A stretch of 57,717 bases of DNA, counting the filler, from Candidatus Desantisbacteria bacterium CG1_02_49_89 (GTDB lineage Bacteria; Desantisbacteria; UBA1551): NCBI GenBank assembly GCA_001871075.1. It is 3 parts of 3 records of this genome, joined end to end, with 100 filler letters (N's around TTAATTAATTAA, not from the genome) between each part and the next. Parts side by side here need not be neighbours in the genome. Positions count along the whole stretch, not along the records: positions 18,984 to 34,636 come from MNUP01000133.1; 2 more parts are not named here. One strand, 5' to 3'. A program made the position numbers and the translations under genes. The stretch's first letter is position 1; each line of letters starts with the position of its first letter. This document shows positions 2,672-57,340 of this stretch, piece after piece. Under the pieces are notes generated by a model. The model saw nothing but the letters and a program-made list of their open reading frames with translations. It did not search any database and was not told the DNA's origin.

Positions 2672-2992
2672 ATGGAAAAGAATGATGATCTGAAAGTACA
2701 ATCGCTGGCTCAAAAAATTAAAGAGAAATTTAACCCGCAAAAAGTAATCCTTTTTGGCTCACATGCAAACGGTGCACCTGCAAAGGGAAGCGATATAGAC
2801 CTTCTAATTATTATGAACACAAATCTTAAGCCCTACAAGCAAGCTTCTTTGATCCGCATGTTTCTAGATGATATATTCGGAGTGAACTATCCTATTGACA
2901 TTATTGTAAGAACTCCTGAATCAATAGAAAAAAGGCTTAAAGAAGGAGACTTTTTCATCAAGAATATCCTGGAAGAGGGAGTGCCTCTGTGA
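2672..2992 (+). CDS. Minimal nucleotidyltransferase (MNT) antitoxin
   Basis: LFGSHA.G.....SDIDLLII motif; 106 aa; overlaps the downstream HEPN start. Confidence 0.9.
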   Translation: MEKNDDLKVQSLAQKIKEKFNPQKVILFGSHANGAPAKGSDIDLLIIMNTNLKPYKQASLIRMFLDDIFGVNYPIDIIVRTPESIEKRLKEGDFFIKNILEEGVPL

Positions 2993-3378
2993 AGGATTTA
3001 ACAAAGGAGTGGGTAAATAAAGCTGAAAAAGATTTTCAGGTGGCTAAGAGAGAGTTTGCTGCAAAGCCACCAGAATACGATGCAGTTTGCTTTCATTCTC
3101 AGCAATGTGTTGAAAAATATATGAAAGCAGTTCTTCAGGAAAACAATATCTTTTTTGAGAAAACCCATGACCTTGATGTTCTGTTGGAAAAATGCAAAGC
3201 ATTTATTCCTGGATTAGCAGGTTTAAAGCAAGAATTGGTAGAACTTTCTTCATTTGCTGTAGAAATCCGCTATCCGGGGGCAGAAGCAACAGGGGAGGAA
3301 GCAGAAAAATACTTATCAGTTGCTGAAGCCGTAAGAAAAATTATTCGCACCTATTTAAAACTTACAACTGATCGTTAA
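2989..3378 (+). CDS. HEPN domain protein (MNT-HEPN pair)
   Basis: W..KAE.D..A; CFHSQQCVEKY.KA; KTHDL; RYPG motifs; paired with MNT. Confidence 0.9.
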   Translation: MKDLTKEWVNKAEKDFQVAKREFAAKPPEYDAVCFHSQQCVEKYMKAVLQENNIFFEKTHDLDVLLEKCKAFIPGLAGLKQELVELSSFAVEIRYPGAEATGEEAEKYLSVAEAVRKIIRTYLKLTTDR

Positions 3379-4135: not shown

Positions 4136-5668
4136 ATGAAGAATAGTAGTAAAACAGACCGAAAATTCATGAAGATTGCCATAGAAGAAATGCTCCTATC
4201 GCGATCAGAACATGCCCAAAAACCGGATCCGATGGTTGGGACTGTATTGGTCGACAAAAGCGGAAAGGAATTAGGTAGAGCTCATCGTAGTATATTCACA
4301 CCAGGAGATCATGGAGAATTTTCAATTCTTGAAAAAGTAAGACCTGATATAGATCCTTCTGGTTGTACATTATACGTAACTTTAGAGCCATGTACTGAAA
4401 GAGAGAATCCAAAGAAAATACCTTGTGCTCAAAGAATAGTTGAGAAAAAAATTGACCGCGTAGTAATTGGTATTTTAGATCCTAATCCTAAAATTTGTGG
4501 TTTTGGTAAATCATATTTGGAGAACTATGGTATAAAAGTTAATTTTTTTGACAAAGATCTTGTAGAAGAAATTAGGATCTGGAATAAAGACTTTATAGAT
4601 TTTATGCAAAATAATAAACAAAAGTTGGAGGGTAGTATGAGCAAATTAGAAGATATAGAACTACCTTCTCAAGAAGAACAGAAACCATATAGCGATGCTA
4701 CTATTAAAGATTTCTCAAACGAAACAATTAAAAAGTATATGAAATATCGGTCAGATATTTCATATACTGTTCCCTCTAAGGAATTATGGACTTTTTTCAG
4801 AAAAAATAGATATCTTGTTAAAGGGGATAAAGGAGACGTACCCACTTTGGCTGGAATTGTACTATTCGGAAAAGATCCGAGTATTTTTATTCCAGAACAT
4901 AGAATTTTAGCTGAGTGTTTTGGTGGAACCCCAGAAAATGGAGCATCAACCGACAAAACCATCGGGAATGGTAAGAAAAATATTACCGGTCCATTATTTG
5001 AGATGACAAAAACCGCTGAAGATTTTTATAAAACGCATATACGAAAGGTACCTTTAATCAAAGGCTTTCAGAGAGTAGATGAAGAGCTTGAATATCCTAA
5101 GGAAGTAATCCGAGAGGCTATCGTGAATGCCTTAGTTCATCGGGATTATAGACTGGGTGGTCATATTTCATTCCAAATATTCAGAGATAGAATTGTAATA
5201 AAGAATCCCGGAAGTATTCTTCGCCCTAATACCATAGAGCGCATGAACTCTTTTGATGTGACTCCTGCTAGACGAAATCCAATAATAGCCGAAGCCGCTG
5301 AGAAAATGATGTTAATGGAGAAAAAGGGAAGAGGTATTCCCGATATGTCTGATCAATTGCAAAAATACGGACTCCGTCCACCGAATTTTGCCTATGATGG
5401 ATATTTAATTGTAACTTTATATGGGAGGGAGAAAACACCCCCTGAATACAGGATTCAGAAAGAGTTCCGTTCTTCACTTACAGATAGACAGTTAAAAATT
5501 CTTAATTTCATCTGGGAACAGGGAAGAGTTAATAGTGAGGAAACAACAAAGAAATTTGATATTACCAGAGAGACTGCAAACCAAGACTTCAGGAAATTGT
5601 TGAAACTTGGTCTAATAGAGAAAAAAGGCACCGGAAGAGCCACTTACTATATCTTGGGTAATATTTAA
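4136..5668 (+). CDS. Fusion of a Zn-dependent (RibD/CMP-type) deaminase, an HATPase_c_4-like ATP-binding domain and a C-terminal winged HTH
   Basis: HGE...TLEPC........PC and DPNP deaminase motifs; REAIVNALVHRDY, NPG, RNP.IA, G.GI motifs; C-terminal LT.RQ..IL...wHTH...G.GR.T.Y. Confidence 0.85.
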   Translation: MKNSSKTDRKFMKIAIEEMLLSRSEHAQKPDPMVGTVLVDKSGKELGRAHRSIFTPGDHGEFSILEKVRPDIDPSGCTLYVTLEPCTERENPKKIPCAQRIVEKKIDRVVIGILDPNPKICGFGKSYLENYGIKVNFFDKDLVEEIRIWNKDFIDFMQNNKQKLEGSMSKLEDIELPSQEEQKPYSDATIKDFSNETIKKYMKYRSDISYTVPSKELWTFFRKNRYLVKGDKGDVPTLAGIVLFGKDPSIFIPEHRILAECFGGTPENGASTDKTIGNGKKNITGPLFEMTKTAEDFYKTHIRKVPLIKGFQRVDEELEYPKEVIREAIVNALVHRDYRLGGHISFQIFRDRIVIKNPGSILRPNTIERMNSFDVTPARRNPIIAEAAEKMMLMEKKGRGIPDMSDQLQKYGLRPPNFAYDGYLIVTLYGREKTPPEYRIQKEFRSSLTDRQLKILNFIWEQGRVNSEETTKKFDITRETANQDFRKLLKLGLIEKKGTGRATYYILGNI

Positions 5669-21295: not shown

Positions 21296-22336
21296 TTACG
21301 GATTTTCAACTATAACCTTCATTCCTTCGCGGTTTTCAACCGCGGCAAAAGCATCAAGGGTCCTGTCAAGCGGGAACCTGCGAGATATCATATCCTTAAT
21401 TTTGATCTTGCCGCTGGCTATGATATCCAGCGCTGTTTTATGCTGCCTGGGTATACTGCCGTGCGACCCGTGAATGTACGCTTCCTTATAATGTATTATA
21501 TTGCTGTCTATGCTTATATTGCGCGTGCCTTTTGGAAGCCCGCCGAAATAATTCACCCTGCCCCTGTTGGCAACTATCCTTATGGCGTCTTCCTGGGCTT
21601 CCGGCGAAGCGCAGGCCACCATAACAACATCGGCTCCCCTGCCCTCTGTTTCCTCCATAACCCTTTTAACCAGGTCTTCCTCGGTAGTTGATATTACAAC
21701 ATCGGCAGGCGTTGAACGCGCCAGCTCAAGCCTTTTCTTGGACCTTTGCGCTATCATGACCTTTTTTGCACCCATGACCTTTGCCATGATCACGAGCATG
21801 CACCCTATAGGGCCGGCGCCTATTACAACCACTGAATCCCCCAGCTTTACCTGTGAAAGCTCAAGCCCGTTTATGCAGCAGGCAAGCGGTTCTGCCAGGG
21901 CAGCTTCCTCGTAACTGAGCCCGGAAGGGATCTTGTGGACCGGGCCGTATTTTACCGTAGTCGCGTTAAGCGGGATATATTCAGCGAACCCGCCCTGGAA
22001 CTGGTAACCTATCGCGTAGTTGATGCGGCAGTTGTTGCCCATTCCGTTGCGGCAAAAAACGCAGCTGCCGCACGGAACATCCGCTCCTATTGCGACCCTG
22101 TCCCCAACGCTGAACGCTTTTACTTCAGCCCCTGCTTCCACCACATCCCCGGCAACCTCATGGCCTATTACCTGCGGGGTTTTTACCCTGGGATTACCGT
22201 AATGAAAGATCCTTATGTCCGACCCGCAAACCGCGCATGCCTTAACCTTTACGAGCATTCCGCCTTTTTCTATAACGGGTTTCGGAATATCCTTTATAAC
22301 TATTTTATTAAGTTCCTCAAGAACCGCCGCCTTCAT
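21296..22336 (-). CDS. Zn-dependent sugar-alcohol dehydrogenase (MDR family)
   Basis: CGSD, GHE, structural Zn Cys cluster, GAGPIG. Confidence 0.9.
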   Translation of the reverse strand: MKAAVLEELNKIVIKDIPKPVIEKGGMLVKVKACAVCGSDIRIFHYGNPRVKTPQVIGHEVAGDVVEAGAEVKAFSVGDRVAIGADVPCGSCVFCRNGMGNNCRINYAIGYQFQGGFAEYIPLNATTVKYGPVHKIPSGLSYEEAALAEPLACCINGLELSQVKLGDSVVVIGAGPIGCMLVIMAKVMGAKKVMIAQRSKKRLELARSTPADVVISTTEEDLVKRVMEETEGRGADVVMVACASPEAQEDAIRIVANRGRVNYFGGLPKGTRNISIDSNIIHYKEAYIHGSHGSIPRQHKTALDIIASGKIKIKDMISRRFPLDRTLDAFAAVENREGMKVIVENP

Positions 22337-22471
22337 TTTTCCTCCGGAAAAAGATGATTACAGTGATTTTTCGAAGATGATTACAATGATTATTGAAATA
22401 TATGAAAATCCTTAAATCCTGATTATAATTATTTTAAATAATCACCGTAATCTCTTTTGGAATCACTGTAA

Positions 22472-23521
22472 TCAAAAGGTAAATAAAACTTTATTGAAGA
22501 ACTCCTTTTTACTACACATCATATCAAAAGCTTCCCTTGCCTTTTCGATACTGAACCTGTGAGTTATAAGCGGTTTGACGTCCAACAGGCCATTGCCCAT
22601 GAAACGAAGGGAAAGCTGCCAGTCATCCCTGGGACCGGGCTTGAAATTAGAGTTCCAGGTGCCGTAAATAGTAAGTTGTTTCCTGAGTATCGATGAAACC
22701 AGCGCCTGCGGAAAATTGACATCCCCGCTGACATTACCGAGGAAAAGCACCTTCCCGAACGTGCCGGCCGCATCCACGCACTGGGCAAAAGATTTCGGGG
22801 AACCGGCTGCTTCTATGCTGATGTCCGCCCCGCCGTCCGTCTGTTCCCTGATGATCTTAACGGGATCATTTTCAAGCGCGTTTATGCAGTCGCCAAATCC
22901 GTAACCTTTAGCGGCTTCCAGCTTCCCGGGAACTATATCAACAATAAATATTTTTTTAGCGCCAAGTATTTTTGCCCATTGGGCGATTATCACGCCGATC
23001 GGCCCCGCTCCGAACACCGCGACTGTGTTGCCCGCGTTCATCCCCGCGCGCCTGATACCGTGCAGGGCGACCGAAACGGGTTCGGCAAATGCCCCGGATT
23101 CAAAATCCAGGCCTTCCGGAAGAAGAACAAGGCTCTCTGAAGGAACGCTTACGTATTCGGCAAACCCGCCGTTCCTCCTTGAACCCAGGTAATCATAATT
23201 GACGCACTGCGCGTATTCTCCCATCAGGCAGAACCTGCACTCCCTGCACGGGATAAGCGGAATTACAGCCACCCTGTCCTGTTTGCCGAAGTTCCTGACA
23301 TTTTTCCCCGTCTCAACAACCTCGCCCGCGAATTCGTGGCCCGGGATAAGGGGGAACTTGTAGGTACCGTGCTGCATGATCCTGGCCGGGTCTGAACCGC
23401 ATATACCGCTCGCAACAACCCTGATAAGGGCTTCGCTGTCACCTATAACCGGCATATCGACTTCTTCCACCCGCAGATCGCCTATTTTGTGCAGGACCGC
23501 TGCTTTCATTTTTTCTTTCAT
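22472..23521 (-). CDS. Galactitol-1-phosphate 5-dehydrogenase-like Zn-dependent dehydrogenase
   Basis: CGSD..R, GHEF, C..C..C..GEYAQC.NYDYLGSRR.GGFAEY, G.WNS. Confidence 0.85.
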   Translation of the reverse strand: MKEKMKAAVLHKIGDLRVEEVDMPVIGDSEALIRVVASGICGSDPARIMQHGTYKFPLIPGHEFAGEVVETGKNVRNFGKQDRVAVIPLIPCRECRFCLMGEYAQCVNYDYLGSRRNGGFAEYVSVPSESLVLLPEGLDFESGAFAEPVSVALHGIRRAGMNAGNTVAVFGAGPIGVIIAQWAKILGAKKIFIVDIVPGKLEAAKGYGFGDCINALENDPVKIIREQTDGGADISIEAAGSPKSFAQCVDAAGTFGKVLFLGNVSGDVNFPQALVSSILRKQLTIYGTWNSNFKPGPRDDWQLSLRFMGNGLLDVKPLITHRFSIEKAREAFDMMCSKKEFFNKVLFTF

Positions 23522-23535
23522 AGCTCCGTCTCTGT

Positions 23536-24963
23536 TTAAAAGATCTTCCCCGGATTAAGTATATTGGAGGGGTCAAAAGCGTTCTTGATCATTTTCATCA
23601 GTTCGATCTGCTTCCGGTCAACGCTCAAATGCAGGTATTCCTTTTTAACCAGCCCTATTCCGTGCTCTCCCGAAATAACCCCTCCGCGCGCTTTAGCATC
23701 CTCGTGAAGCTCTTTCCGCACAGCGGGATATTTTTCCCTCCATCCGCCTGTCTCGGTATCATCCAGCCTGCCGTCCTTCATCCCGGCTTTCATAAGGAAC
23801 GTATGGATATTCCCGTCAGCCGCGTGGCCGCACGTCGGCAGCCACATCCCGTATTTCTCAGAGATCGCGTGGACCTTCTTGACATGGCCGGCTATTTCCG
23901 ACCTGGGAACGGTAATGTCCAGCGCTTCAATGGTTTTCGGCTTCAAAGCCTCATAGATCAGGCTGCGTATATCCATTACATCCTGCTGTTTCTGGCGGGT
24001 ATTCGCCACGAATACGTCAGCGGCATTATTTTCCAGGCATATACGGGAAACGGACTCAGACAGCTTTTCTATCTCTTCTTCGCTTGATCCGTCAAGGACG
24101 ATCATAAGATGCGCCTCTCCCCCCTTGCAGGGCCATTCCTTCCTTAAGAATTCCTCCGTGACAGTTATCAGGTCTCTCTCGATAAATTCAACTGCCATCG
24201 GGACTATCTTGCCGCGGATCATTGCCGGGACCGTCCTTATGGCGTCGTTTAAACTGCCGTAGGGGATTATCAGCATGATCATTGCCGGAGGCGGAGGCAT
24301 AAGGCTTATCACTGCCTTGGTCACAACCCCCAGAGTTCCTTCCGATCCGATCAAAAGATTCATAATATTGTATCCCGTGCTGTTCTTCATGATCTTCCCG
24401 CCGGTACTTATTATGCTCCCGTCGGATAAAACCGCCTCAATACCCCTGATGAAGTTCCTTATTACCCCGTATTTGACCGCCCTGGCCCCGCCCGCGTTAG
24501 TGGCGATCACACCCCCGATAGTAGCGCTTTCCTCGCCCGGATGCGGGGGAAAGAAAAAACCCGCCTTTTCAACTTCCGCGTAAAATTCCCTGAGCGTCAC
24601 TCCTGCCTCAACCACGGCCATAAGGTTCTCCGTGTCTATCTCAAGGATCCTGTTCATATTTTCGAAAGAAATGACTATCCCTCCGGATACCGGGACGCAG
24701 CCGCCGCACAGGCCTGTCCCTCCCCCTCTCGGGGTGACGGGGAATCCTTCCTTGGCCGCGATCCGCAGGATCTCCGATATTTCACCCGCGCTCCGGGGTT
24801 TTATCACCGCCTCGGGGATCCTTCCTGCTTCCGCAAGCGAAAATTCGTCATGGGAGTAATCCTGCATTTTTTCTTTGTCGGAAATGACGTTATTTTCACC
24901 TGCAATTTCTTTGAGCCTTTCCAGGTTCCGGCTATCTATTTTGTTATAACGTGACCGCGCCAT
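23536..24963 (-). CDS. FAD-linked 2-hydroxyacid oxidase/dehydrogenase (GlcD/D-lactate dehydrogenase family)
   Basis: PRGGGTGL.GG, TNAGG.RAVKYG, GSEGTLG, GHA.DGNIH, SGEHGIG, DP.NILNPGKIF. Confidence 0.9.
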   Translation of the reverse strand: MARSRYNKIDSRNLERLKEIAGENNVISDKEKMQDYSHDEFSLAEAGRIPEAVIKPRSAGEISEILRIAAKEGFPVTPRGGGTGLCGGCVPVSGGIVISFENMNRILEIDTENLMAVVEAGVTLREFYAEVEKAGFFFPPHPGEESATIGGVIATNAGGARAVKYGVIRNFIRGIEAVLSDGSIISTGGKIMKNSTGYNIMNLLIGSEGTLGVVTKAVISLMPPPPAMIMLIIPYGSLNDAIRTVPAMIRGKIVPMAVEFIERDLITVTEEFLRKEWPCKGGEAHLMIVLDGSSEEEIEKLSESVSRICLENNAADVFVANTRQKQQDVMDIRSLIYEALKPKTIEALDITVPRSEIAGHVKKVHAISEKYGMWLPTCGHAADGNIHTFLMKAGMKDGRLDDTETGGWREKYPAVRKELHEDAKARGGVISGEHGIGLVKKEYLHLSVDRKQIELMKMIKNAFDPSNILNPGKIF

Positions 24964-24977
24964 TCTACGGTTATCCT

Positions 24978-26354
24978 TTATATCTCCATTACTATTTTTA
25001 TCAGTTCGCTCTCCGAGATCCCGAGGGCTTCATAGTTTTTATAATATTCGTCTATAACCTTCCGGTAAAAGCCTGTCTTGATCTTCTCTTCTCTCATGAC
25101 CTTTACTCTCTCCAGGGCTTTCTGGATAAGCCCGGGAGTGATCTCGATCCCTTTTTTCCGCAGCTTTTTTTCATTTTTCCGCAGGACCGCCTCGACAGCC
25201 GCGGTTCCGCTGTGTTTTCCGAAGACAAACCTTCTTGTCGCGCCTACATCATCTTCCCGGATGAACTGGTAGATAGCGGGGTTGATAACGATCGCTGCCG
25301 TATGGATCCCAGACTCGTGCGCGAACACGCCCTCTCCGATGATCGGCTCATGCGGCTGGACAGGGATCCCGGAATACTTTTCAACAGCCTTTCTCAACTC
25401 CACGAGTTTTTCATACCTGAACCCGGGTATCTCCACGCCGTACAGGTCTTTCAAAACCATCACCGCCTGATGGATGGACGTATTCCCTGCCCGCTCCCCT
25501 ATCCCGTTCGCAGTAACCCCGAGATATGTTGCTCCGTGACTCAGGGCATAAACGGTATTTATAGCGCCCAGCCCGAAATCGTTGTGAAAATGCGCCGTCA
25601 TCGGCACCCCGTCAAGCGCCTTCACCATCTCCGGGATGTAATGGCTGACGGCTTCCGGTGTGAATACGCCGCAGGTATCGGAAAAACACATCCTTGTGCC
25701 GCCCGCCTTTACACAGGCCTTAGCCCACCTTACCCCGTATTCAAGGTTTCCCCTGGATGAATCCTCGGAAGCGAATTCAACCCGGGAAATGCCTTTAGCC
25801 CTGGCATACCTGATGGCGTCGCAGATCATTTTTGAGTTCGCTTCCCTGTAAAACTCAAGCGGCGTCTCAAGCCACTGGCCCGGCGGCTTCCCCTCTCTTT
25901 TAAGGAGGGTCTTCCCGAGTTTGTATTTTATATGCAGGTCCGAAAAGGTCGAAAGTATAAGCACGCTCGCGTCATCAGGCTTTGCCCCTATCTCTGCCAG
26001 CGTCTGGACCACGGCATCTATATCCGCCGGGTTGCTCCTGCACATCGCGAGGATCTCGACATCCTTCCTGATCTCCCCTTTTTTCTGCGCCTGGACTATA
26101 AGCTGCAACGCCCTGCGGTCAGATTCGCCGTTCATCGGGAATGCCACGTCCATTACGTGTATCCCCATATCGCTCAACAGCTTTGCCAGCTCTAATTTCT
26201 GCTCAGGGCTGAAAGCAACGCCCGGCATCTGCTCGCCGTCCCGCAGCGTGTCGTCGTATATCCTGATCTCCGAGGGGTCCGGGAAGCGCAGTTTCTTCGT
26301 GAAATTCTTAGGATGACTGATAAGGTCCTCAAGCGGCTCACGGAACTCTATCAT
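24978..26354 (-). CDS. DRE-TIM metallolyase (homocitrate / isopropylmalate / Re-citrate synthase-like) without a LeuA regulatory domain
   Basis: D.TLRDGEQ.PG, HFHNDFGL, GIGERAGN, FAHESGIH, GKHSG. Confidence 0.85.
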   Translation of the reverse strand: MIEFREPLEDLISHPKNFTKKLRFPDPSEIRIYDDTLRDGEQMPGVAFSPEQKLELAKLLSDMGIHVMDVAFPMNGESDRRALQLIVQAQKKGEIRKDVEILAMCRSNPADIDAVVQTLAEIGAKPDDASVLILSTFSDLHIKYKLGKTLLKREGKPPGQWLETPLEFYREANSKMICDAIRYARAKGISRVEFASEDSSRGNLEYGVRWAKACVKAGGTRMCFSDTCGVFTPEAVSHYIPEMVKALDGVPMTAHFHNDFGLGAINTVYALSHGATYLGVTANGIGERAGNTSIHQAVMVLKDLYGVEIPGFRYEKLVELRKAVEKYSGIPVQPHEPIIGEGVFAHESGIHTAAIVINPAIYQFIREDDVGATRRFVFGKHSGTAAVEAVLRKNEKKLRKKGIEITPGLIQKALERVKVMREEKIKTGFYRKVIDEYYKNYEALGISESELIKIVMEI

Positions 26355-26366
26355 CTCGCAATTACC

Positions 26367-27677
26367 TCATTTTGTCAGGTCAAAAATATGCCCTTCGTCA
26401 TCGGAAGTGCCCCATTTTTCTATCGCGGCCCTGAGTTCCTTATTCTTTTTGGCGGCTTCCTTTAACGGGATCTTGCTCTGGAACGCCTTGATCGCCTGGT
26501 GGAACGATTTTGCTCCCCCGGACACGCCCATAGGATGACCCTGGATCCCGCCGCCTGCGCTGAGAAGCACGTCGTTGCCGAAATTCTCCATAAGTTTATC
26601 AACCACCCCGGCGTGCAGCCCGGCTGAAGGAGCGCCGAAAACCCTCCGCAGGTGGTAGAACGGCGCGGTCAGCTCCTGCCATATCCTGATAACCCTTTCC
26701 TTCACCATCGGGACCTTTCCGAAATAACTGGGGTATATCACCATGTCCGCGCCGGAAAGCCTGGCTAATTTCCCCAGCACAAGGCTTGACGTCAGCCCGT
26801 AATTCGGCGAACCGAAGATCGCCCCCGCGAAATTCGGGTGGGCAAGCACGGGAACATTGATCCGCGGGTCCTCCGCAAGCGCGCTCATCGCGGAAAAACT
26901 TACCGTGTACGTGTTCACCATAAGGCAGTTCGCTCCCTGCTTTACGGCGGATTCCGCCCTTTTGAACATAACGTCCAGGTTGTCGGTGATATTCACAGCG
27001 TAAAGGACTCTGCGGCCTGTCTCGGAACGTATCTTTTTGCATGCCTTGAGACAGATGTCCAGCCTTTCCTTAACAGGGCAGAATTCAGGGTCTGCGAGCA
27101 GTTCGTCATCCTTAATTATGTCAACGCCTGCCGTGCCCAGCTCATAAAGCAGTTTGCCCAGGGTTTTAGGGTCCATGCCTACGCATGGCTTTAGCACGGC
27201 CACGATCACAGGCCTGCCTTTGACGCCAAGAAGCTTCCTCACGCCTTCAATGCCGAATTTAGGCCCTTTAAAATTCTTCACGAATGACCCGGGCAGGAAC
27301 GTGTCAAGCAGCTTTATTTTTCCGGACATTGAAATATTCCCGTAAAGGGTTGTCAGGAGCTGGGGTATCTGCCTGCTTATGTTTGCCGCGGGAAACCCTA
27401 TCAGGAAAATAAATTTCCTGGTTCCCGGAGGTTCCGGAAGCGCGTCTTCATAGCTGGGGAGCTCGTGGACCGCGAGGACCTTAGCGGCGCATTTTTCCCT
27501 GATCTCCCGCGTCTCGCTGGGAACCGCGATCCAGGTGCCTGTGGACTGTTCAAGCGCGATCGCTTCCACCTTTTTCAGGATATCAGCGGATTCCGCCTCC
27601 ATGTAATAAAGCCCGAGAACGTAGTCTTCCTTGTTTATTCCCTCAAAAATTCCAAACACATTGGGATCCAGCCCCAT
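26367..27677 (-). CDS. RuBisCO-like protein (form IV)
   Basis: EQSTGTW, GPKFGIEG.R, KPCVG, IKDDE, AHP, GK in loop 6, PSAG, AGGGI.GHP; lacks the K177 and R295 equivalents of true RuBisCO. Confidence 0.92.
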   Translation of the reverse strand: MGLDPNVFGIFEGINKEDYVLGLYYMEAESADILKKVEAIALEQSTGTWIAVPSETREIREKCAAKVLAVHELPSYEDALPEPPGTRKFIFLIGFPAANISRQIPQLLTTLYGNISMSGKIKLLDTFLPGSFVKNFKGPKFGIEGVRKLLGVKGRPVIVAVLKPCVGMDPKTLGKLLYELGTAGVDIIKDDELLADPEFCPVKERLDICLKACKKIRSETGRRVLYAVNITDNLDVMFKRAESAVKQGANCLMVNTYTVSFSAMSALAEDPRINVPVLAHPNFAGAIFGSPNYGLTSSLVLGKLARLSGADMVIYPSYFGKVPMVKERVIRIWQELTAPFYHLRRVFGAPSAGLHAGVVDKLMENFGNDVLLSAGGGIQGHPMGVSGGAKSFHQAIKAFQSKIPLKEAAKKNKELRAAIEKWGTSDDEGHIFDLTK

Positions 27678-27920
27678 ACAACACTCCTTTTAACAGGGAT
27701 CTTCGAGCGGGATTTCAGCTACCGTCGAGCGTCGGACGTCTTACCCCCTGCAGTTCCGAGTATACATCGGAACTAAACGCGGGGGTCTTCGACGTGTTAT
27801 TAATCATTTACGAACGACCCGCTAGGGCGACTTACGACGTAAGACGGGATAAGTTCTCTTAAGCCTGCCCGCCAATCTTAGTGGAGGGTTCCCTGTAAAA
27901 AACATATCTTTTTCATGAGT

Positions 27921-28847
27921 CTACATCTTCACGTATTTGCGCCAGTAAGCCACTGACTCTTTCAGGTCATGGATCACCCTGTATTCCTGGGGATACCTTT
28001 CCCTGAAAGAAAATTCAAAAAGCAGGACAACGTCCTTTGCCCCGGATTCCTTCAACGCCTTTATTACCTTCTGCGGGCGTATGATCCCCTTTTTATTGTT
28101 TTCCTTCGTAAAAGGCCAGTGCCCGCTTTTATCTTTTGAGCTTTGCTTGATGTGTATCACCGGAGAAACCGGCCCGAATTCCCTCAGCCAGGCGTAGGGA
28201 TCTGTGTCTTTCGGATCCCGTGAGTGCAGGTTCCCGTGGTCAACATCCATGCATAAGCGGATCGGAATAGCGGCATTCGAATTTACTCGTTCGAGCAATT
28301 CCCTGGTATCCCGTATTGTTGAGGCGCATTCCCGGGGAACGGACATTGGCTCAAATATAAGAAAATCAAAACCAAGTTTCTTGCCGTAATCAGAAAGCCT
28401 CTGCCAGTTTTTTATCCCCTCCTCGAATATGAACCTGCGCCTGGAAAGGTCATTAAAATCAGGAACGGAGAATATCCCGAAATGCCCCCCGCTCCCCCTT
28501 GCCCCCAGCTCCCTTGAATAATAAAAATATCTTTTGAACCACTCAAACCAGATCTTCCTCACTTCGGGGTCAGGATGCAGCAGGTGATTGACCCTTGTGA
28601 ACGCGCTCGTGAAGGTCGTATCAACCGTTACCCTGTATCTGGCGCAAAGGCGCCGGATCTTTTTTACCTCACTCTTAAGGATGTAATCCGGCAAAAATGG
28701 GTTTAAAAGATCGGCTACGTGCTGGACATACCTCAGATTAAGGACCTCCCCCACGATCTTTATCCATGATCCGGCTTCGGGATACCTGTTTATGGCAAAT
28801 CCCGTGTCAATCCCCAATTTTATTTTCAGTTCTTTTGAGTCCACCAT
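27921..28847 (-). CDS. Sugar-phosphate epimerase, TIM barrel, resembling D-erythrulose-1-phosphate 3-epimerase (EryC-like)
   Basis: NH..HPD..VR...WFK, EPMS..RE, D.DHG...DPYAW, SP.IHIKQS..DK.GH.PFT motifs recalled from EryC. Confidence 0.7.
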   Translation of the reverse strand: MVDSKELKIKLGIDTGFAINRYPEAGSWIKIVGEVLNLRYVQHVADLLNPFLPDYILKSEVKKIRRLCARYRVTVDTTFTSAFTRVNHLLHPDPEVRKIWFEWFKRYFYYSRELGARGSGGHFGIFSVPDFNDLSRRRFIFEEGIKNWQRLSDYGKKLGFDFLIFEPMSVPRECASTIRDTRELLERVNSNAAIPIRLCMDVDHGNLHSRDPKDTDPYAWLREFGPVSPVIHIKQSSKDKSGHWPFTKENNKKGIIRPQKVIKALKESGAKDVVLLFEFSFRERYPQEYRVIHDLKESVAYWRKYVKM

Positions 28848-29563
28848 TTCCTTGATCCTGCGCCTCCTTTTCTAAGGATATCCTTCAGTGAAGACCGGGC
28901 ATTAGCATACAGCCGGCTTAAAGACGCGGTAATATCTGTTCCCTCTTTTGTAAAGATCCCCGCGGTCCCTCCGACAAAAATATTTGCCCCTGCTTCCAGG
29001 AACATAGCAATGGTCCTGTCATTAACGCACCCGTCAACCTCTATTTCAACGCGCTCTGCTCCGTTCTCCTGCAGCATTTTCCTCAGGTCAGCCACCTTCC
29101 TGACCGTCCCGGGAATAAACGCCTGTCCGGCAAAACCCGGGTTGACAGCCATGACCAGCACCACCTCGGTTTTATCCAGAACGTGCCGAATGGAATTCAG
29201 CGGTGTTGACGGGTTCAATGCAACCGCAGGCCTGGCGCCCGCGTCTTTTATTGCCTGGAGCGCGCGGTCCAGATGGACAGTTGCCTCCGCGTGTATGCTT
29301 ATAATATCGCTGCCCGCGTCCGCGAACTGCCTTATATATTTCTCGGGATGGATTATCATAAGGTGGGTATCCAGAGGATGCCTGGTTGACGCCCGCACGG
29401 CTTTCACGATACCCGCGCCAAGCGCGATATTCGGAACGAACGTTCCGTCCATTATGTCAAAATGAAAAAGGCGCGCACCGCCTTTTTCCAGCCTGCGCAC
29501 GTCCCTTTCAAGATTCAGCAGATCCGCGCACATGATCGAAGGCGCGATCTTTATTTTCCTCAT
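28826..29563 (-). CDS. rpe: Ribulose-phosphate 3-epimerase family protein
   Basis: IAPSI, H.DIMDG.FVPN, HLM, M.VNPGFAGQ, EVDG. Confidence 0.88.
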   Translation of the reverse strand: MRKIKIAPSIMCADLLNLERDVRRLEKGGARLFHFDIMDGTFVPNIALGAGIVKAVRASTRHPLDTHLMIIHPEKYIRQFADAGSDIISIHAEATVHLDRALQAIKDAGARPAVALNPSTPLNSIRHVLDKTEVVLVMAVNPGFAGQAFIPGTVRKVADLRKMLQENGAERVEIEVDGCVNDRTIAMFLEAGANIFVGGTAGIFTKEGTDITASLSRLYANARSSLKDILRKGGAGSRKWWTQKN

Positions 29564-33743: not shown

Positions 33744-34433
33744 TTACTTTCCTGTGTATATAGTGAGCGGCCCGCGGCCGTCTGCGGCCGCACCGCAATA
33801 AATATTTTCAACGCAAATTTCCGGGAATCCCCCGAAACCGCGCGCAAGAAAGGAAACTATCGCCGCCCCAAGCGGCGTAGTGAGCTCCCCGCCTATGGAA
33901 GTATTTACAACAGGTATTCCGCGGGTCAGCTCGCGCGTGGCAGGAGTGGGCACGGAGAGCAAGCCGTGGCTGCACCGTACCTTTCCGGAACCAAGCGCCA
34001 GGGGAGAAACGTATATCGTGCCTATCTTGAGCTCTTCTAATCCGGCGATAATGCCTGTCGCGGCAAGTATTGCGGCCGGATGGCCGACCTCAAAAAGATG
34101 GACATCTTCGACCGGCTCCCCGTGAACCCTTGATTCCGCGGCTGCCACGCCGTAAAATATTTTACAGAGTTTGTTTTTAACGCTCTGCCTGATCCTGCTG
34201 GATCTTATAAAAGCGGTTATTTCCCCAATATTTGTCGGCTTCAGGGGAGCATTGCATTCCAGGTCTGCCACCGTGCGCGGAACCCCGCCTGTCCTCCTGG
34301 ATTTTTTTATCCTGAATTTAACGCCAAGCTTTTTCATTTGCGCTTCAGGCTCAGAAGCGCCGGAATCCAGTACCGCGGCGAGCAGTTTCCTGGGTGTTAC
34401 CCCATTATAGCAGTCAATGTATGCGATACGCAT
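33744..34433 (-). CDS. LarC-family nickel insertion protein, N-terminal domain only
   Basis: IAYIDC..G, AES.VHG....VHL.EVG, G.V.CSHG.L.VP.PAT, GELTTP.GAA. Confidence 0.8.
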   Translation of the reverse strand: MRIAYIDCYNGVTPRKLLAAVLDSGASEPEAQMKKLGVKFRIKKSRRTGGVPRTVADLECNAPLKPTNIGEITAFIRSSRIRQSVKNKLCKIFYGVAAAESRVHGEPVEDVHLFEVGHPAAILAATGIIAGLEELKIGTIYVSPLALGSGKVRCSHGLLSVPTPATRELTRGIPVVNTSIGGELTTPLGAAIVSFLARGFGGFPEICVENIYCGAAADGRGPLTIYTGK

Positions 34434-35017: not shown

Positions 35018-35069
35018 TTGACAAAATATTGAAAATAGTGTATAATATATGTATTACAGATGTATTACG
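35018..35069 (+). promoter_or_regulatory. Consensus sigma70 promoter of the TA operon with a putative RHH operator
   Basis: TTGACA-17 bp-TATAAT (35018-35046), then tandem ATGTATTAC repeats (35049-35068). Confidence 0.75.
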
Positions 35070-35080
35070 AAGGAGGGATT

Positions 35081-35302
35081 ATGAGGAACATTGTGTCAAT
35101 AAGCCTGCCGGAAAATTTACTTAAAAAGGTCAAAAGAGAGAGCAAAAAAGAAAATATTACTTCAAGCGAATTGATCAGGAAAACGCTGAACGGGTATTTT
35201 TTTATTACCGAATTCAGGCAAATTCAGCAGAAGGCATTAAGTGAGATAAAGAAAAAAGGCCTGAAGTTAACTGACGAAGAAATATTCAAGAGAGTATCTT
35301 GA
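35081..35302 (+). CDS. Ribbon-helix-helix (CopG-like) antitoxin
   Basis: IVSISLP..L...V.......SELIR; GGAGG RBS; overlaps the PIN gene. Confidence 0.85.
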   Translation: MRNIVSISLPENLLKKVKRESKKENITSSELIRKTLNGYFFITEFRQIQQKALSEIKKKGLKLTDEEIFKRVS

Positions 35303-35700
35303 AGATCCTGTTTGACACAAATGTTCTGATCGCGGGATTTATAAACAAAGGCACGTGCCGGGATGTTATTTTAATCGCTCCGACCATACATCAGGTCTAC
35401 TATACGGATTTTATAATAAGCGAGCTGCAAAATGTATTAAAGGATAAATTCGAGGTTTCAGAACCCACGATAAAAAGATTCCTGCTGCTTATTAAAAAAT
35501 ATTTTAACAGGGGAGAAGCCGCCCCGGTCATTCCGCGGGTCTGCCGCGATGTTTCCGATAACCAGATACTTGCCGATGCTTCATTTAATAATGTCGATAT
35601 GGTAATAACCGGCGATACGGATATTCTGGAGATAGAGATTTATCAGGGAATTAAGATGATCTCCCCAAGGGAATTTATGGAAAATTACAGAGGGTCTTAA
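35299..35700 (+). CDS. PIN-domain toxin (VapC-like)
   Basis: FDTNVLI, CRD..DN.IL, ITGD.DIL. Confidence 0.9.
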   Translation: MKILFDTNVLIAGFINKGTCRDVILIAPTIHQVYYTDFIISELQNVLKDKFEVSEPTIKRFLLLIKKYFNRGEAAPVIPRVCRDVSDNQILADASFNNVDMVITGDTDILEIEIYQGIKMISPREFMENYRGS

Positions 35701-50446: not shown

Positions 50447-51214
50447 ATGTCTGGCAAAGGACCCGGTATAGCGGTTCAGCTCTATTCGGTAAGGGATGAC
50501 TGCGCGAAGGATTTCGCGGGAACCCTGAAAGCAGTCGCAAAAATGGGATATGAAGGTGTGGAGTTCGCGGGCTACTACGGAAAAAGCGCTCAGGAGCTGA
50601 GGAAGATGCTCGATGACCTGGGACTGAAGGCAGCCGGGACCCATATCGGGCTGGACACCCTGATGGGCGGGGAACTTGAAAAGACCGCGGAGTTCAACCG
50701 GATCATCGGAAACAGCTTTCTGATAGTACCGGGGCTTGCGCCTGAAAGGATAAGTTCGATATCCGCCTGGAAGGAAACCGCCAAGATTTTTAACGGCATT
50801 GCCGCAAAGCTGAAACCACTGAGAATGTATACCGGCTACCACAACCACATTATAGAATTCAAGGCATCGGAAGGCCAGCTCCCGTGGGACGCGTTTTTTT
50901 CAAACACGGACGCAAGCGTGGTGATGCAGCTTGACACCGGTAACGCCATGCACGGCGGCGTGAAAGCCGGCGAGATCCTCGATTTTGTTAAAAGGTACCC
51001 GGCAAGGGCCTTAACGGTCCACCTGAAGGAATTTTCGCAGTCAAACGATAAGGCGCTCCTTGGCGAAGGTGATGTTATGTGGAAGGACCTATTCAAGATG
51101 TGTGAGACGATCGGGGGGACCATGTGGTACATCGTGGAACAGGAAAGCTACGCGTATCCGCCGCTTGAGTGCGTGGAGAAATGCCTGCAGAATTATAAGC
51201 GCATCCACGGCTGA
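50447..51214 (+). CDS. Sugar phosphate isomerase/epimerase (AP endonuclease 2 TIM barrel)
   Basis: QLYSVR, GYEGVEFAG, YHNH..EF, QLDTG, HLK, VEQE. Confidence 0.9.
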   Translation: MSGKGPGIAVQLYSVRDDCAKDFAGTLKAVAKMGYEGVEFAGYYGKSAQELRKMLDDLGLKAAGTHIGLDTLMGGELEKTAEFNRIIGNSFLIVPGLAPERISSISAWKETAKIFNGIAAKLKPLRMYTGYHNHIIEFKASEGQLPWDAFFSNTDASVVMQLDTGNAMHGGVKAGEILDFVKRYPARALTVHLKEFSQSNDKALLGEGDVMWKDLFKMCETIGGTMWYIVEQESYAYPPLECVEKCLQNYKRIHG

Positions 51215-51257
51215 TACCCCCGTCCCGAAGGTCCCGAAGTGAGAAAGGAGAAAAGGA

Positions 51258-52319
51258 ATGGCAAAGGTGAAGGTTGGAATTATCGGCGCCGGCGGTATAG
51301 CGCAGGTGGCCCACATCCCCAATTTCCAGAAGATCACGGGTGTGGAGGTCGCGGCAATATCGGACCCAAACGAGGAGAAGTTGAAGTTTGTGGCCGGTAA
51401 GTTCAAGATCGGCAGTTCATTTACCGATTACAGGAAAATACTGGAAATGGACGATATTTCCATAGTAAGCATATGCTCCCCGAATTTTGTTCACAAGGAG
51501 CACGCAGTGGAGAGCCTAAAAAGCGGGAAACACGTGCTTTGTGAAAAACCGGTCGCAATGAGCGGGGCGGAAGCGCGCGAAATACTTGAAACGGCGAAAA
51601 CCACAAAGAAAAAATTCATGGTCGCTTTCCCAAGCAGGTTCGCGCCCGGCGCCGTGTTTCTCAAGAAGCTGGTGGACAGGGGAGAGTTCGGGGAGATTTA
51701 TTACGCGAAAGCAAGCTGCCTGAGGAGAAGGGGCATCCCGGGCCTGGGCGGATGGTTCACAACCAAAAAGATGTCCGGCGGCGGGCCCCTTATAGACATC
51801 GGCGTGCACATACTCGATAAGACGTACTGGCTGATGGGGGCTCCTGAACTCGTAAGCGTTACCGGGGTGACCTACCAGAAATTCAAAGACAAGGCTTTTG
51901 ACGGCGGATGGCCTCCGGTGGAAACAAGGGTCGGGGATAAATATACCCAGCCGCTTGACGTGGAGGACCTTTCATCCGCATTTATAAAGTTCAGCAACGG
52001 CGCCAGCCTTTTCCTTGAGGCGTCCTGGGCGGGAAATTCGGAGGGCGGCACATCCCTTTCCCTTTTCGGCACGAAGAAGGGCGCCAAGGATGACGGCGCA
52101 TCCCTTAAGATCTATGACGAAGTGAACGGCGTCCTGCTTGACAATACCCCGGTCCTTCCCGGAGCAGATACTTATTTCGAGGAAATAAAGCATTTTGTTT
52201 CCTGCGTTCTGGAAGATAAAGAGCCGGTAACCAAGCCGAACGAGATCCTGAATGTCATCCGTATAATAGAGTCAATTTACCTGTCGGCTGACACCGGGAA
52301 AGAGATACGATTAGAATAA
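51258..52319 (+). CDS. Gfo/Idh/MocA oxidoreductase
   Basis: GAGGIA, CEKP, GGGPLIDIGVH. Confidence 0.92.
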   Translation: MAKVKVGIIGAGGIAQVAHIPNFQKITGVEVAAISDPNEEKLKFVAGKFKIGSSFTDYRKILEMDDISIVSICSPNFVHKEHAVESLKSGKHVLCEKPVAMSGAEAREILETAKTTKKKFMVAFPSRFAPGAVFLKKLVDRGEFGEIYYAKASCLRRRGIPGLGGWFTTKKMSGGGPLIDIGVHILDKTYWLMGAPELVSVTGVTYQKFKDKAFDGGWPPVETRVGDKYTQPLDVEDLSSAFIKFSNGASLFLEASWAGNSEGGTSLSLFGTKKGAKDDGASLKIYDEVNGVLLDNTPVLPGADTYFEEIKHFVSCVLEDKEPVTKPNEILNVIRIIESIYLSADTGKEIRLE

Positions 52320-52328
52320 GGGGGATCT

Positions 52329-52517
52329 ATGTCAAAAAATAGGGAAATACAAGTAAAAGTATCTTCTTTTGAAAAGATTTTTAAGGAAACAGTTGGTAAT
52401 AAAGCGTATGTAAAAATGACAAAAGAAGAGAGAAAAGTTATCCACGAAATGAGTGAATGTCAGATGAAGGGTGGCCCTATCGGTTCTGCAGTTATAAAAG
52501 AACCGTCAACAAGATAA
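52329..52517 (+). CDS. Small hypothetical protein, possible partner of the PIN protein
   Basis: 62-aa ORF with GGGG RBS, ending 1 nt before the PIN-like gene; AT-rich. Confidence 0.55.
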   Translation: MSKNREIQVKVSSFEKIFKETVGNKAYVKMTKEERKVIHEMSECQMKGGPIGSAVIKEPSTR

Positions 52518-52518
52518 T

Positions 52519-53169: not shown

Positions 53170-53179
53170 GAGGTATAAA

Positions 53180-54157: not shown

Positions 54158-54180
54158 TTCATCCAAGGAGAGATGAAAGA

Positions 54181-54768: not shown

Positions 54769-54831
54769 AAAATTGGTAGCTTACATTTGAATTTATTTAA
54801 TCTATTTTTATGAATAAAAATGGAGATAAAA

Positions 54832-55965: not shown

Positions 55966-55967
55966 AG

Positions 55968-57245: not shown

Positions 57246-57340
57246 CGTTCTTCGTACATCGTTCATCGCTTAAAAAGAAATTAATGATATTTTTTTTTGC
57301 GAAGCACGATGAACGAAGCACGATGCACGAAGGAGGCCCT

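Follow-up and report, generated by a model that had tools for sequence, protein, structure and literature searches.

A cluster of genes on the minus strand of Candidatus Desantisbacteria bacterium CG1_02_49_89 (GCA_001871075.1), between positions 21296 and 29563 of a stretch of 57,717 nucleotides, carries a RuBisCO-like protein (RLP) next to a homocitrate/isopropylmalate-synthase-like enzyme (HCS-like) and a flavin-dependent dehydrogenase that resembles GlcD and LctD. The whole stretch is referred to here as the window, with all positions counted along it. The three genes recur together in other genomes, and we put at roughly four in five the probability that their products form a conserved functional module of an undescribed pathway in which the RLP is not a 2,3-diketo-5-methylthiopentyl-1-phosphate (DK-MTP-1-P) enolase. 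The genes of this core are, from upstream to downstream:

26367..27677, minus strand: core gene 1, the RLP (form IV), with RuBisCO_large (PF00016) and RuBisCO_large_N (PF02788) domains
24978..26354, minus strand: core gene 2, the HCS-like DRE-TIM Claisen-condensing enzyme (homocitrate/isopropylmalate-synthase-like), with HMGL-like (PF00682) and HCS_D2 (PF22617) domains
23536..24963, minus strand: core gene 3, the GlcD/LctD-like FAD-dependent 2-hydroxyacid dehydrogenase, with FAD_binding_4 (PF01565) and FAD-oxidase_C (PF02913) domains

They belong to a run of seven co-oriented open reading frames (ORFs), all of which had been named in an earlier reading of this DNA from its sequence alone (the sequence-only reading) and were recovered, with the same families and positions, by ORF calls checked with Pfam and NCBIfam. 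The gaps from the RLP to the HCS-like gene, on to the dehydrogenase and on to a first Zn dehydrogenase are 12, 14 and 14 bp, exactly the tight spacing that had been described. That reading had also failed to recognise the combination of an RLP with an acetyl-CoA-condensing type of enzyme and a 2-hydroxyacid oxidase; the pairing is now found in other genomes, and literature searches, with supplements and key reviews outside their scope, returned no paper linking an RLP with an HCS- or isopropylmalate synthase (IPMS)-like enzyme, an FGGY kinase, erythritol or EryC, or LsrF.

Conservation of the core

Of the 80 RLP genome loci, 8 have the HCS-like gene immediately after the RLP, at 63-74% identity, these loci being from Firestonebacteria, one Nitrospirota and one Elusimicrobia; a ninth genome has the pair divided by contig ends. 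There are also genomes with an RLP of the same clade (52-66% identity) that has no adjacent HCS-like gene, and all five of them carry an HCS-like orthologue elsewhere (65-74% identity). The phylum that holds most of the genomes with the two genes was surveyed through 99 GTDB genomes, with at least 48% identity taken as the threshold for an RLP orthologue. HCS-like is found in 19 of these and the RLP in 21, with both in 18, HCS-like only in 1, the RLP only in 3 and neither in 77 (Fisher p = 1e-15, relatedness ignored), and lineages with adjacent and with unlinked genes both contribute to this co-occurrence. Two of the four exceptions are at contig ends. Within the phylum of the Nitrospirota-labelled genome, HCS-like is present in a single genome out of 201, the one where it is adjacent to an RLP.

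A scan of metagenomes seeded with the HCS-like gene gave 79 loci, which were regarded as informative if they had at least 1300 nt upstream (58 loci) or at least 1400 nt downstream (50 loci). The RLP is directly upstream in 10 of the 58, and a GlcD-type gene is directly downstream in 34 of the 50, as a fusion of ~930 amino acids in 30 cases and as a short form in 4. Amongst the 34 loci with both flanks, 2 have both partners, 7 the RLP only, 22 the GlcD-type gene only and 3 neither. The HCS-like gene of the Elusimicrobiota genome G009 is followed by a short GlcD-like gene at a site away from its RLP.

The nearest sister operon (L136, L091) has orthologues of the whole trio, with identities in L136 of 80.5, 82.5 and 78%, and then continues with TauE-like pieces, an LsrF equivalog, an unrelated Zn dehydrogenase and hisF. 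The lsrF gene, at 13413-14306 of L136 and also present in L091, is three genes after the RLP and scores 499.9 against a cut-off of 297 for the 3-hydroxy-5-phosphonooxypentane-2,4-dione (P-HPD) thiolase; the L136 locus has no lsrK or lsrG-type genes.

The sequence-only reading had treated all seven genes as one sugar/polyol operon. This stands for the RLP and HCS-like genes, together with the GlcD-type gene at some loci, but amongst the loci scanned rpe, the EryC-like gene and both Zn dehydrogenases are RLP-linked only in the window and in L081, a metagenome contig of the same DNA, and in the sister operon the trio is kept with the LsrF equivalog and a different Zn dehydrogenase in place of the sugar genes. 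The association goes beyond chance for the core of RLP, HCS-like and GlcD-type genes, a result that does not extend to the other four, and the sugar-phosphate genes are additions particular to this lineage. The DNA itself is contained in 24 listed sequencing runs, all of them of DNA and labelled as groundwater or aquifer metagenome, with none of RNA.

The RuBisCO-like protein

The RLP passes the Pfam cut-offs for both RuBisCO domains (PF00016, 183.1 bits; PF02788, 32.2 bits) and is classed on its sequence as a form IV member of the RuBisCO large-subunit superfamily, belonging to an uncharacterised family beside MtnW. It falls below the cut-offs for bona fide RuBisCO (TIGR03326, 260.5 against 497; PRK04208, 248 against 438; PRK13475, 129 against 489) and for OiaX (NF042437, 212.8 bits against 700). 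The NCBIfam model that it matches best is the enolase model PRK09549, at 400.4 bits just under the cut-off of 409, and the second enolase model, TIGR03332, is also missed (343 against 513.6). The closest solved structures are enolases, with 2oek as the top PDB match (1.4e-91, 311 bits), the mtnW of Priestia is 38.6% identical by tblastn, and the source names of the RLP homologues say DK-MTP-1-P enolase.

Residues were compared in an alignment of 73 family members with the form I RuBisCO of C. necator, the MtnW of Priestia (from a complete salvage operon), the OiaX of Rhizobium and other RLPs, with positions numbered as in RuBisCO. The equivalents in the window RLP are E43 for E60, N114 for N123, K163 for K175, K189 for K201, D191 for D203, E192 for E204 (the KDDE motif being 189-192), H280 for H294 and K321 for the loop-6 lysine K334, with C165 replacing K177, P281 replacing R295, alanine at H298 and isoleucine at H327. 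The retained and substituted positions reported in the sequence-only reading, namely K175, KDDE, H294 and the loop-6 lysine as against cysteine for K177 and proline for R295, are therefore those found against a true RuBisCO. E60, T65, W66, N123, K175, K201, D203, E204, H294, K334, G381 and G403 are invariant in 73 of 73 members, and the K177 position is cysteine in every one. The second phosphate site, formed by R295, H298 and H327, is lost across the whole family, which fits a monophosphate substrate. The RLP keeps those residues on which RuBisCO relies in the steps of CO2 addition and cleavage, and on this pattern it is predicted to bind a single phosphate.

It is these same positions that separate the family from MtnW (YkrW, the IV-YkrW type), its nearest characterised relative. 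The two have in common the carbamate Lys-Asp-Glu, K175, H294, the first phosphate site and the loss of R295 and H298. However, MtnW has lysine at N123, glycine at E60, serine at K334 and valine at K177, whereas the family keeps E60 and K334 and has its cysteine at K177. The N123 position corresponds to Lys98 of the Geobacillus enolase, which we take to be the catalytic base of the DK-MTP-1-P enolase; it is lysine in 2oek and in the Priestia MtnW but asparagine in 73 of 73 family members (Asn114 in the window). The genomic context differs as well, with mtnK, mtnX, mtnB and mtnD all missing from the vicinity of the RLP in Pfam scans of the window, in contrast to the Priestia operon. Those scans covered 49 of the 55 called ORFs and returned no kinase, transporter or methionine-salvage gene, in agreement with the earlier statement that no salvage genes are adjacent. 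Amongst five related genomes MtnB is above its cut-off in none and MtnA in four.

In a quick maximum-likelihood tree the family and MtnW form a supported clade apart from the OiaX-type and Photo-type RLPs. The HCS-linked RLPs are one group of 12 (Shimodaira-Hasegawa-like approximate likelihood-ratio support, SH-aLRT, 92); their sister is MtnW, on a long branch (SH-aLRT 93). The placement of MtnW is not fixed, as forcing it out of the family costs only 0.32 log-likelihood units (approximately unbiased test, p-AU 0.498). The sequence-only reading had looked to phylogeny to set the RLP apart from the enolases; by its residues it is indeed not an MtnW enolase, but MtnW is still the nearest relative with a known function, which touches in part a condition that the reading had set for its own refutation.

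The apionate-pathway RLPs provide a second comparison. The transcarboxylase/hydrolase type proceeds by way of an erythrulose-1-phosphate-type enediolate, with products that Carter in 2018 reportedly gave as 3-phosphoglycerate and glycolate. A passage of PMC6302742 names the D-apionate reaction as that of a 3-oxo-isoapionate-4-phosphate transcarboxylase/hydrolase. Like these enzymes (OiaX and the transcarboxylase/hydrolase), the window RLP would carry out carbon-carbon chemistry on a monophosphate, and they are a mechanistic precedent for the cleavage proposed below, with the difference that its substrate would need the uptake of free CO2. OiaX differs further in forming a separate and well supported clade, in keeping R295, in having glycine at N123 and in its partner, a four-carbon acid sugar kinase, of which there is none in the scanned window ORFs. 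The branched-chain sugar that had been suggested as a possible substrate found no support, with the RLP lying outside the OiaX clade. The RLP of Rhodospirillum rubrum is a further point of reference, being close to MtnW and described in a passage of PMC6302742 as a 5-methylthioribulose-1-phosphate 1,3-isomerase ('DeepYkr') acting directly on the ketose 1-phosphate that MtnA produces; the related genomes here likewise have MtnA without MtnB. An RLP with cysteine at K177 is not confined to the family, with a second, distant RuBisCO-family protein in the Nitrospirota-labelled genome G003 (L163) having cysteine there and keeping R295; it groups with Photo-type and OiaX-type references, outside the family studied. 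To our knowledge the R. rubrum system has no HCS-like or GlcD partner.

The wider RLP family

A search for the RLP family returned 1211 proteins at E <= 0.001, with hosts in Firestonebacteria, Elusimicrobiota, Nitrospirota, Chloroflexota, Bacillota (including Moorella and Thermacetogenium) and archaea, and a passage of PMC7325909 gives the function of the Moorella-type RLPs as unknown. The gene most often found beside the RLP is an FGGY (xylulokinase-like) kinase immediately upstream, and the cluster of this kinase is present at 33 of the 80 loci. The kinase scores 355 bits, under a cut-off of 380, a saccharopine-dehydrogenase-like gene is often downstream, and the unit is uncharacterised. FGGY kinase, RLP and saccharopine-dehydrogenase-like gene is the order in the Chloroflexota loci, and FGGY-RLP loci include L039, L055, L058, L065-L068, L070, L074 and L079 as well as other Chloroflexota.

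The Syntrophomonadaceae and Moorella-type loci have a different order, in which a GlpP-like antiterminator is followed by the RLP, a PEP-hydrolase-like TIM barrel, a ComB-like phosphatase, a UPF0261 gene and a second PEP-hydrolase-like gene. This orphan operon is conserved in L015, L023, L025, L028, L029, L032, L034, L041, L051 and L052. In a third RLP clade the FGGY kinase is accompanied by a HAD phosphatase, an SDR or a glyoxalase.

The HCS-like enzyme

The HCS-like protein is below the cut-offs of all 25 NCBIfam models among the matches listed, whether for homocitrate synthase of the NifV and LysS types (TIGR02660, 248.6 against 462.9; TIGR02146, 231.8 against 413.6) or for IPMS and citramalate synthase (TIGR00973, 210 against 599; TIGR00977, 150 against 450; NF042433, 126 against 950), and Pfam finds no LeuA_dimer regulatory domain in it. 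Its best solved relative is the methylthioalkylmalate synthase (MAMS) 6e1j, and it was also aligned to the Sulfolobus homocitrate synthase. Met104 and Glu193 replace a histidine and an arginine of the Sulfolobus enzyme, positions which presumably bind the distal carboxylate of 2-oxoglutarate.

R38, D39, Q42, E197, T227, H255, H257, H351 and Y362 correspond to R89, D90, Q93, E227, T257, H288, H290, H388 and Y399 of BjMAMS, residues that a passage of PMC11532901 names as catalytic or metal-binding. These are invariant in 8 orthologues, with a mean column identity of 84%. A passage of PMC8468904 names four pocket positions for MAMS, which in this protein are L132, E193, C223 and S225; a further pocket residue is A195, where IPMS has serine and MAMS glycine. 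A conserved insertion of ~20 residues contains basic and aromatic positions that do not vary. Thus the enzyme shares with the IPMS, homocitrate, citramalate and methylthioalkylmalate synthases their fold, the HMGL-like and HCS_D2 domains and every BjMAMS catalytic and metal residue, but differs from them in its missing LeuA regulatory domain, its insertion and its own set of pocket residues, and by its sequence it would be a catalytically intact Claisen-condensing DRE-TIM synthase of a distinct subfamily.

The related genomes have 4-6 HMGL-like paralogues each, including separate LeuA-type genes of 513-546 amino acids, and therefore HCS-like is an extra enzyme. Its identity to these paralogues is 30-36%, and no annotated plasmid gene goes beyond 34%. 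The names given to its relatives are 'hypothetical protein' at NCBI and only generic LeuA-family names in the Protein Atlas.

The GlcD-type dehydrogenase

The dehydrogenase in the window misses the GlcD equivalog cut-off (TIGR00387, 369.8 bits against 567.9), and in the PDB it matches the lactate dehydrogenase subunit LctD (7qh2_C, 396.8 bits) better than glycolate oxidase (9qgz, 256.4 bits). It represents one of three GlcD-type architectures that follow HCS-like genes, the short LctD-like form, which is found in the window, L091, L092, L136 and G009, where the partner scores 447.2 against the same cut-off. The second architecture is a GlcD-GlcE fusion followed by a GlcF-like gene in the Nitrospirota locus L010, where TIGR00387 is passed at 612. 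The third, from soil-type metagenome loci, is a fusion, ~930 amino acids long, of GlcD with an Fe-S/CCG part, at 277.8 on the same model. That GlcD-type dehydrogenases of three architectures have been recruited beside HCS-like suggests that the 2-oxoacid substrate of HCS-like is made by oxidation of a 2-hydroxyacid.

The ~930-residue fusion (L107, 1857-4652, and about 30 soil-type loci) has an architecture like that of YdiJ, yet scores 286 bits against a cut-off of 1350. It is always directly after HCS-like, in wider contexts that are unrelated to each other (pilus/type II secretion, ScpAB, a DEAD helicase).

Accessory genes

The remaining features of the cluster, all on the minus strand apart from the gap, are:

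28826..29563, minus strand: rpe, ribulose-phosphate 3-epimerase (TIGR01163, 254 bits; PF00834)
27921..28847, minus strand: EryC-like xylose-isomerase-fold TIM barrel, putative erythrulose-1-phosphate (3-tetrulose-4-phosphate) 3-epimerase (PF01261, 4k3z)
27678..27920, no strand: intergenic gap of 243 bp on the 5' side of the RLP
22472..23521, minus strand: Zn-MDR dehydrogenase 1 (ZnDH1), galactitol-1-phosphate 5-dehydrogenase-like (NF007642, 4a2c)
21296..22336, minus strand: Zn-MDR dehydrogenase 2 (ZnDH2), threonine/sorbitol-dehydrogenase-like (TIGR00692)

The rpe and EryC-like genes overlap by 22 bp, and the 243 bp between the EryC-like gene and the RLP are a possible start of an RLP-HCS-GlcD-ZnDH1 transcription unit. 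No Rfam match was found in this gap at E <= 1, and a scan for riboswitches and leaders across the window region, at the same threshold, gave only two sub-threshold matches of chance level, elsewhere than upstream of the RLP. Seven related loci gave only a tRNA and no S-adenosylmethionine riboswitch. A promoter consensus scan found 23 promoter-like sites against 11.7 expected, with terminators as many as expected, and does not define the operon.

The rpe product passes its equivalog cut-off of 212.6 bits, and the gene is either a lineage-specific accessory or a housekeeping neighbour. The EryC-like protein matches PF01261 at 48.7 bits and no NCBIfam model, but aligns over its full length with Brucella EryC (4k3z, E 8.4e-65, 222 bits, residues 8-306 against 23-322); the earlier EryC-like call is borne out in this way and gives a lead towards tetrulose phosphates. 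EryC is described in a passage of PMC10733421 as erythrulose-1-phosphate 3-epimerase, an activity which by homology is putative for the 27921-28847 gene. Unlike in the Brucella erythritol pathway, the window scans gave no eryA, eryB, eryH or eryI-type genes, and an RLP follows the EryC-like gene. None of the 80 RLP genome loci has an EryC-like gene. A xylose-isomerase-like TIM gene that comes after HCS-like in Firestonebacteria was considered as a relative of EryC and proved unrelated on comparison, and the 319-residue gene after it has a weak match to the FapF-like outer-membrane family and is probably unrelated.

ZnDH1 reaches 256 bits on the GatD model NF007642, under the cut-off of 550, and 228 bits with 4a2c, the runner-up being at 168; from these matches its substrate is probably a phosphorylated polyol or ketose. 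No orthologue of it was found beside the RLP at the other loci examined. ZnDH2 (TIGR00692, 226 bits against 458; best PDB match Tdh-like, 184 bits) is separated from ZnDH1 by 135 bp and, given this gap, is only loosely attached to the cluster. Distant matches to rpe and to Zn dehydrogenases lie some kilobases from the RLP in two Chloroflexota loci.

A possible pathway

The chemistry of the module can be approached from its partners. The accessory genes of the two closest operons act on substrates, erythrulose 1-phosphate for EryC and P-HPD for LsrF, that share the head group of carbons 1-3 of ribulose 1,5-bisphosphate (RuBP). It is because of these head groups, the single phosphate site and the intact residues for enolisation, carboxylation and cleavage that the RLP is inferred to be the source of the 2-hydroxyacid. 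We tentatively propose, as a possibility that falls well short of even odds, that a ketose 1-phosphate is cleaved in the manner of RuBisCO to 3-phosphoglycerate and a 2-hydroxyacid, which is then oxidised and condensed with acetyl-CoA.

In this scheme the RLP would bind a ketose 1-phosphate with the head group P-O-CH2-C(=O)-CHOH-, and its Mg-carbamate site would form the 2,3-enediolate. Erythrulose 1-phosphate from the EryC-like epimerase would be the best candidate substrate in this organism, with rpe and the two Zn dehydrogenases feeding the organism's own sugar or polyol phosphate into the module. RuBisCO-type addition of CO2, hydration and cleavage between C2 and C3 would then give 3-phosphoglycerate and a 2-hydroxyacid, the latter being glycolate from erythrulose 1-phosphate, D-lactate from a 5-deoxypentulose 1-phosphate or glycerate from a pentulose 1-phosphate, with methylthiolactate also among the products of C5 substrates. 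The GlcD-like flavoenzyme would oxidise the 2-hydroxyacid to a 2-oxoacid (glyoxylate in the case of glycolate) and HCS-like would condense glyoxylate with acetyl-CoA to a malate-type product, thus taking the role of a non-orthologous malate synthase. Canonical malate synthase (PF01274) was found in none of the five related genomes.

There is precedent for such an arrangement. The E. coli glcDEF-glcB genes are a module of glycolate oxidase and malate synthase, and in the 'malate cycle' of Cupriavidus necator glycolate arising from RuBisCO is said to be handled by a module of the same kind. The likeness lies in a 2-hydroxyacid dehydrogenase beside an acetyl-CoA-condensing enzyme, downstream of a reaction of a RuBisCO-family protein, and is closest in L010, where the GlcD above the equivalog cut-off and the GlcE and GlcF parts come after HCS-like; the difference is that HCS-like is not a malate synthase by family. 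A more specific form of the proposal is that the RLP family is a true carboxylase for ketose monophosphates, adding free CO2 to the 2,3-enediolate to give 3-phosphoglycerate and a 2-hydroxyacid. Its substrates would be erythrulose 1-phosphate or a 5-deoxy- or 5-thio-pentulose 1-phosphate, with a dedicated flavoenzyme and a novel DRE-TIM 'malate-synthase-like' enzyme assimilating the 2-hydroxyacid, and this we regard as a more doubtful claim than the general scheme.

A number of observations weigh against the proposed cleavage. The use of CO2 by the RLP is pure inference, and K177 and H327, replaced here by cysteine and isoleucine, are both important in RuBisCO catalysis. The window dehydrogenase is nearer to LctD (397 bits) than to glycolate oxidase (256 bits), and the HCS-like pocket of L132, E193, A195, C223 and S225 is IPMS- and MAMS-like, with no obvious shrinkage to suit glyoxylate, and the conserved basic residues of the insertion might bind a charged substrate. 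As the related metagenome-assembled genomes are incomplete, the absence of malate synthase is weak evidence. The EryC-like gene is confined to this organism amongst the loci scanned, and no kinase or transporter was found in the window scans. The pairing of FGGY kinase with HAD or ComB-type phosphatase in the sister clades fits an isomerase acting between kinase and phosphatase better than a lyase. Finally, 22 of the 34 two-flank metagenome loci have HCS-like and a GlcD-type gene without an adjacent RLP, although this concerns the flanks only.

Alternative explanations

The strongest alternative takes up the point about the sister clades. The RLP may be an isomerase or enolase that acts without carbon-carbon cleavage on a ketose 1-phosphate or a diketone phosphate, as in the conversion of erythrulose 1-phosphate to erythrulose 4-phosphate, an isomerisation of phosphorylated 4,5-dihydroxy-2,3-pentanedione (P-DPD) or P-HPD, or a Rhodospirillum-type 1,3-isomerisation, with HCS-like and GlcD serving another branch or a downstream product. 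The nearest RLPs of known function, MtnW and the R. rubrum enzyme (the latter from a passage of PMC6302742), are all proton-transfer enzymes, the loss of K177 and H327 is in keeping with such a role, as is the set of FGGY kinase, RLP and HAD or ComB-type phosphatase, and the EryC-like and rpe genes would fit a route from tetrulose phosphate to erythrose 4-phosphate and so into the pentose phosphate pathway. However, the isomerase leaves the tight coupling of the RLP with HCS-like without a reason, and offers none for the invariance of E60, N123 and K334 across the family when MtnW lacks all three. It is a possible explanation rather than a probable one, and about as likely as the RuBisCO-type cleavage with CO2 set out in the scheme above.

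A form of methionine salvage independent of O2 is unlikely but would make use of the same core. MtnA would provide 5-methylthioribulose 1-phosphate, which the RLP would cleave to 3-phosphoglycerate and 2-hydroxy-3-methylthiopropanoate; the flavoenzyme would give 3-methylthiopyruvate, HCS-like would add acetyl-CoA, and a Leu-type isomerase and dehydrogenase would lead to 4-methylthio-2-oxobutanoate. With 5-deoxyribulose 1-phosphate the same steps would run from D-lactate through pyruvate to citramalate. MtnW as nearest characterised relative, the 6e1j match and the cysteine and serine of the HCS-like pocket can all be placed on this side, as can an LctD-like dehydrogenase, the MtnA and MtnB counts in the related genomes and the purine nucleoside phosphorylase gene found directly beside mtnA in G001 (L166, 4965-6823) and G004 (L167, 4162-6026). 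The distribution of MtnA over 92 genomes of the 99, with MtnB in none of five, suggests that (methylthio/deoxy)ribulose 1-phosphate is made without the classical downstream steps, but set against about 20 genomes for the RLP and HCS-like it shows no specific co-distribution, and MtnA was accordingly rejected as a specific partner of the RLP. Moreover no S-adenosylmethionine riboswitch or other Rfam element is upstream in the window or the seven related loci, the neighbours in the window are sugar-phosphate rather than sulfur enzymes, and the 6e1j match may reflect only a general likeness to IPMS.

It is slightly less likely again that HCS-like and the GlcD-type enzyme are a self-contained housekeeping pair and that the proximity of the RLP has no mechanistic meaning. 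Such a pair could run from D-lactate through pyruvate to citramalate, from D-malate through oxaloacetate to Re-citrate or from glycolate to malate, and Re-citrate synthases are themselves short HCS/IPMS-like enzymes. The 22 of 34 two-flank metagenome loci without an adjacent RLP, in unrelated contexts, are what would be expected of it, but the 99-genome table is not (both genes in 18, HCS-like only in 1, the RLP only in 3, neither in 77), nor is the keeping of both genes in all five unlinked cases. HCS-like is also rare for a housekeeping gene, at 19 of 99 and 1 of 201 genomes, and comes in addition to LeuA- and CimA-like paralogues.

That the RLP is an ordinary DK-MTP-1-P enolase, as the near miss of PRK09549 (400.4 against 409), the solved relatives, the database names of its homologues and the sister position of MtnW in the quick tree (SH-aLRT 93) would have it, is highly improbable and was rejected as an assignment on the asparagine at Lys98 in 73 of 73 members, the two missed curated cut-offs, the finding of MtnB above its cut-off in none of five related genomes and the absence of mtnK, mtnX, mtnB and mtnD nearby in the window scans, with the tree position itself not fixed (p-AU 0.498).

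The rest of the window

The remainder of the window is made up of housekeeping genes and a low-GC defence island. From 52000 to 57717 the GC content is 0.28-0.35, compared with ~0.5 elsewhere, and there are genes for an N6/N4 DNA methylase, an HNH endonuclease, a GmrSD-like protein and a RiboL-PSP HEPN protein, so that the region looks like an acquired defence island. A nucleotidyltransferase and HEPN gene pair at 2672-3378 and, at 35060-35700, a small ORF followed by a PIN-domain gene are both toxin-antitoxin-like. At 4136-5668, in a stretch of lower GC, is a gene in which a cytidine/dCMP deaminase domain is fused, unusually, to a HATPase_c_4 domain like that of the RecG C-terminus.

A LarC-type ORF at 33744-34433 covers profile positions 1-219 of 375 (LarC1-like) and overlaps the called start of a PpiD-like gene, and it may be a split larC or a sign of a mis-called start. 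A second xylose-isomerase-like TIM barrel occurs with a GFO/IDH/MocA oxidoreductase at 50447-52319, and a similar TIM/GFO-IDH-MocA pair is divergently upstream of the RLP in L003, L088 and L090. The window pair was considered as orthologous to that of L003; the identities are 28% (over a partial alignment) and 41%, and orthology is not established.

Significance

RLPs are the only view there is of the roles of the RuBisCO scaffold before and beside CO2 fixation, and only a handful of their reactions are known. The two conserved partners narrow the chemistry of the HCS-linked RLPs to one in which a 2-hydroxyacid would be made, oxidised and condensed with acetyl-CoA, and in place of an orphan family there are now three proteins to assay on a short list of substrates.

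If the RLP were an isomerase, it would provide a new sugar-phosphate route and would correct the widespread mis-annotation of such proteins as DK-MTP-1-P enolase. If instead the carboxylase were true, this would be the first RLP with net CO2 fixation on a substrate other than RuBP, and would bring with it a novel reaction that uses CO2 as well as a malate- or alkylmalate-forming synthase of a new type. It would then be a living model, in anaerobic groundwater bacteria, of a possible carboxylase that preceded RuBisCO, and would bear on the origin of RuBisCO carboxylation.

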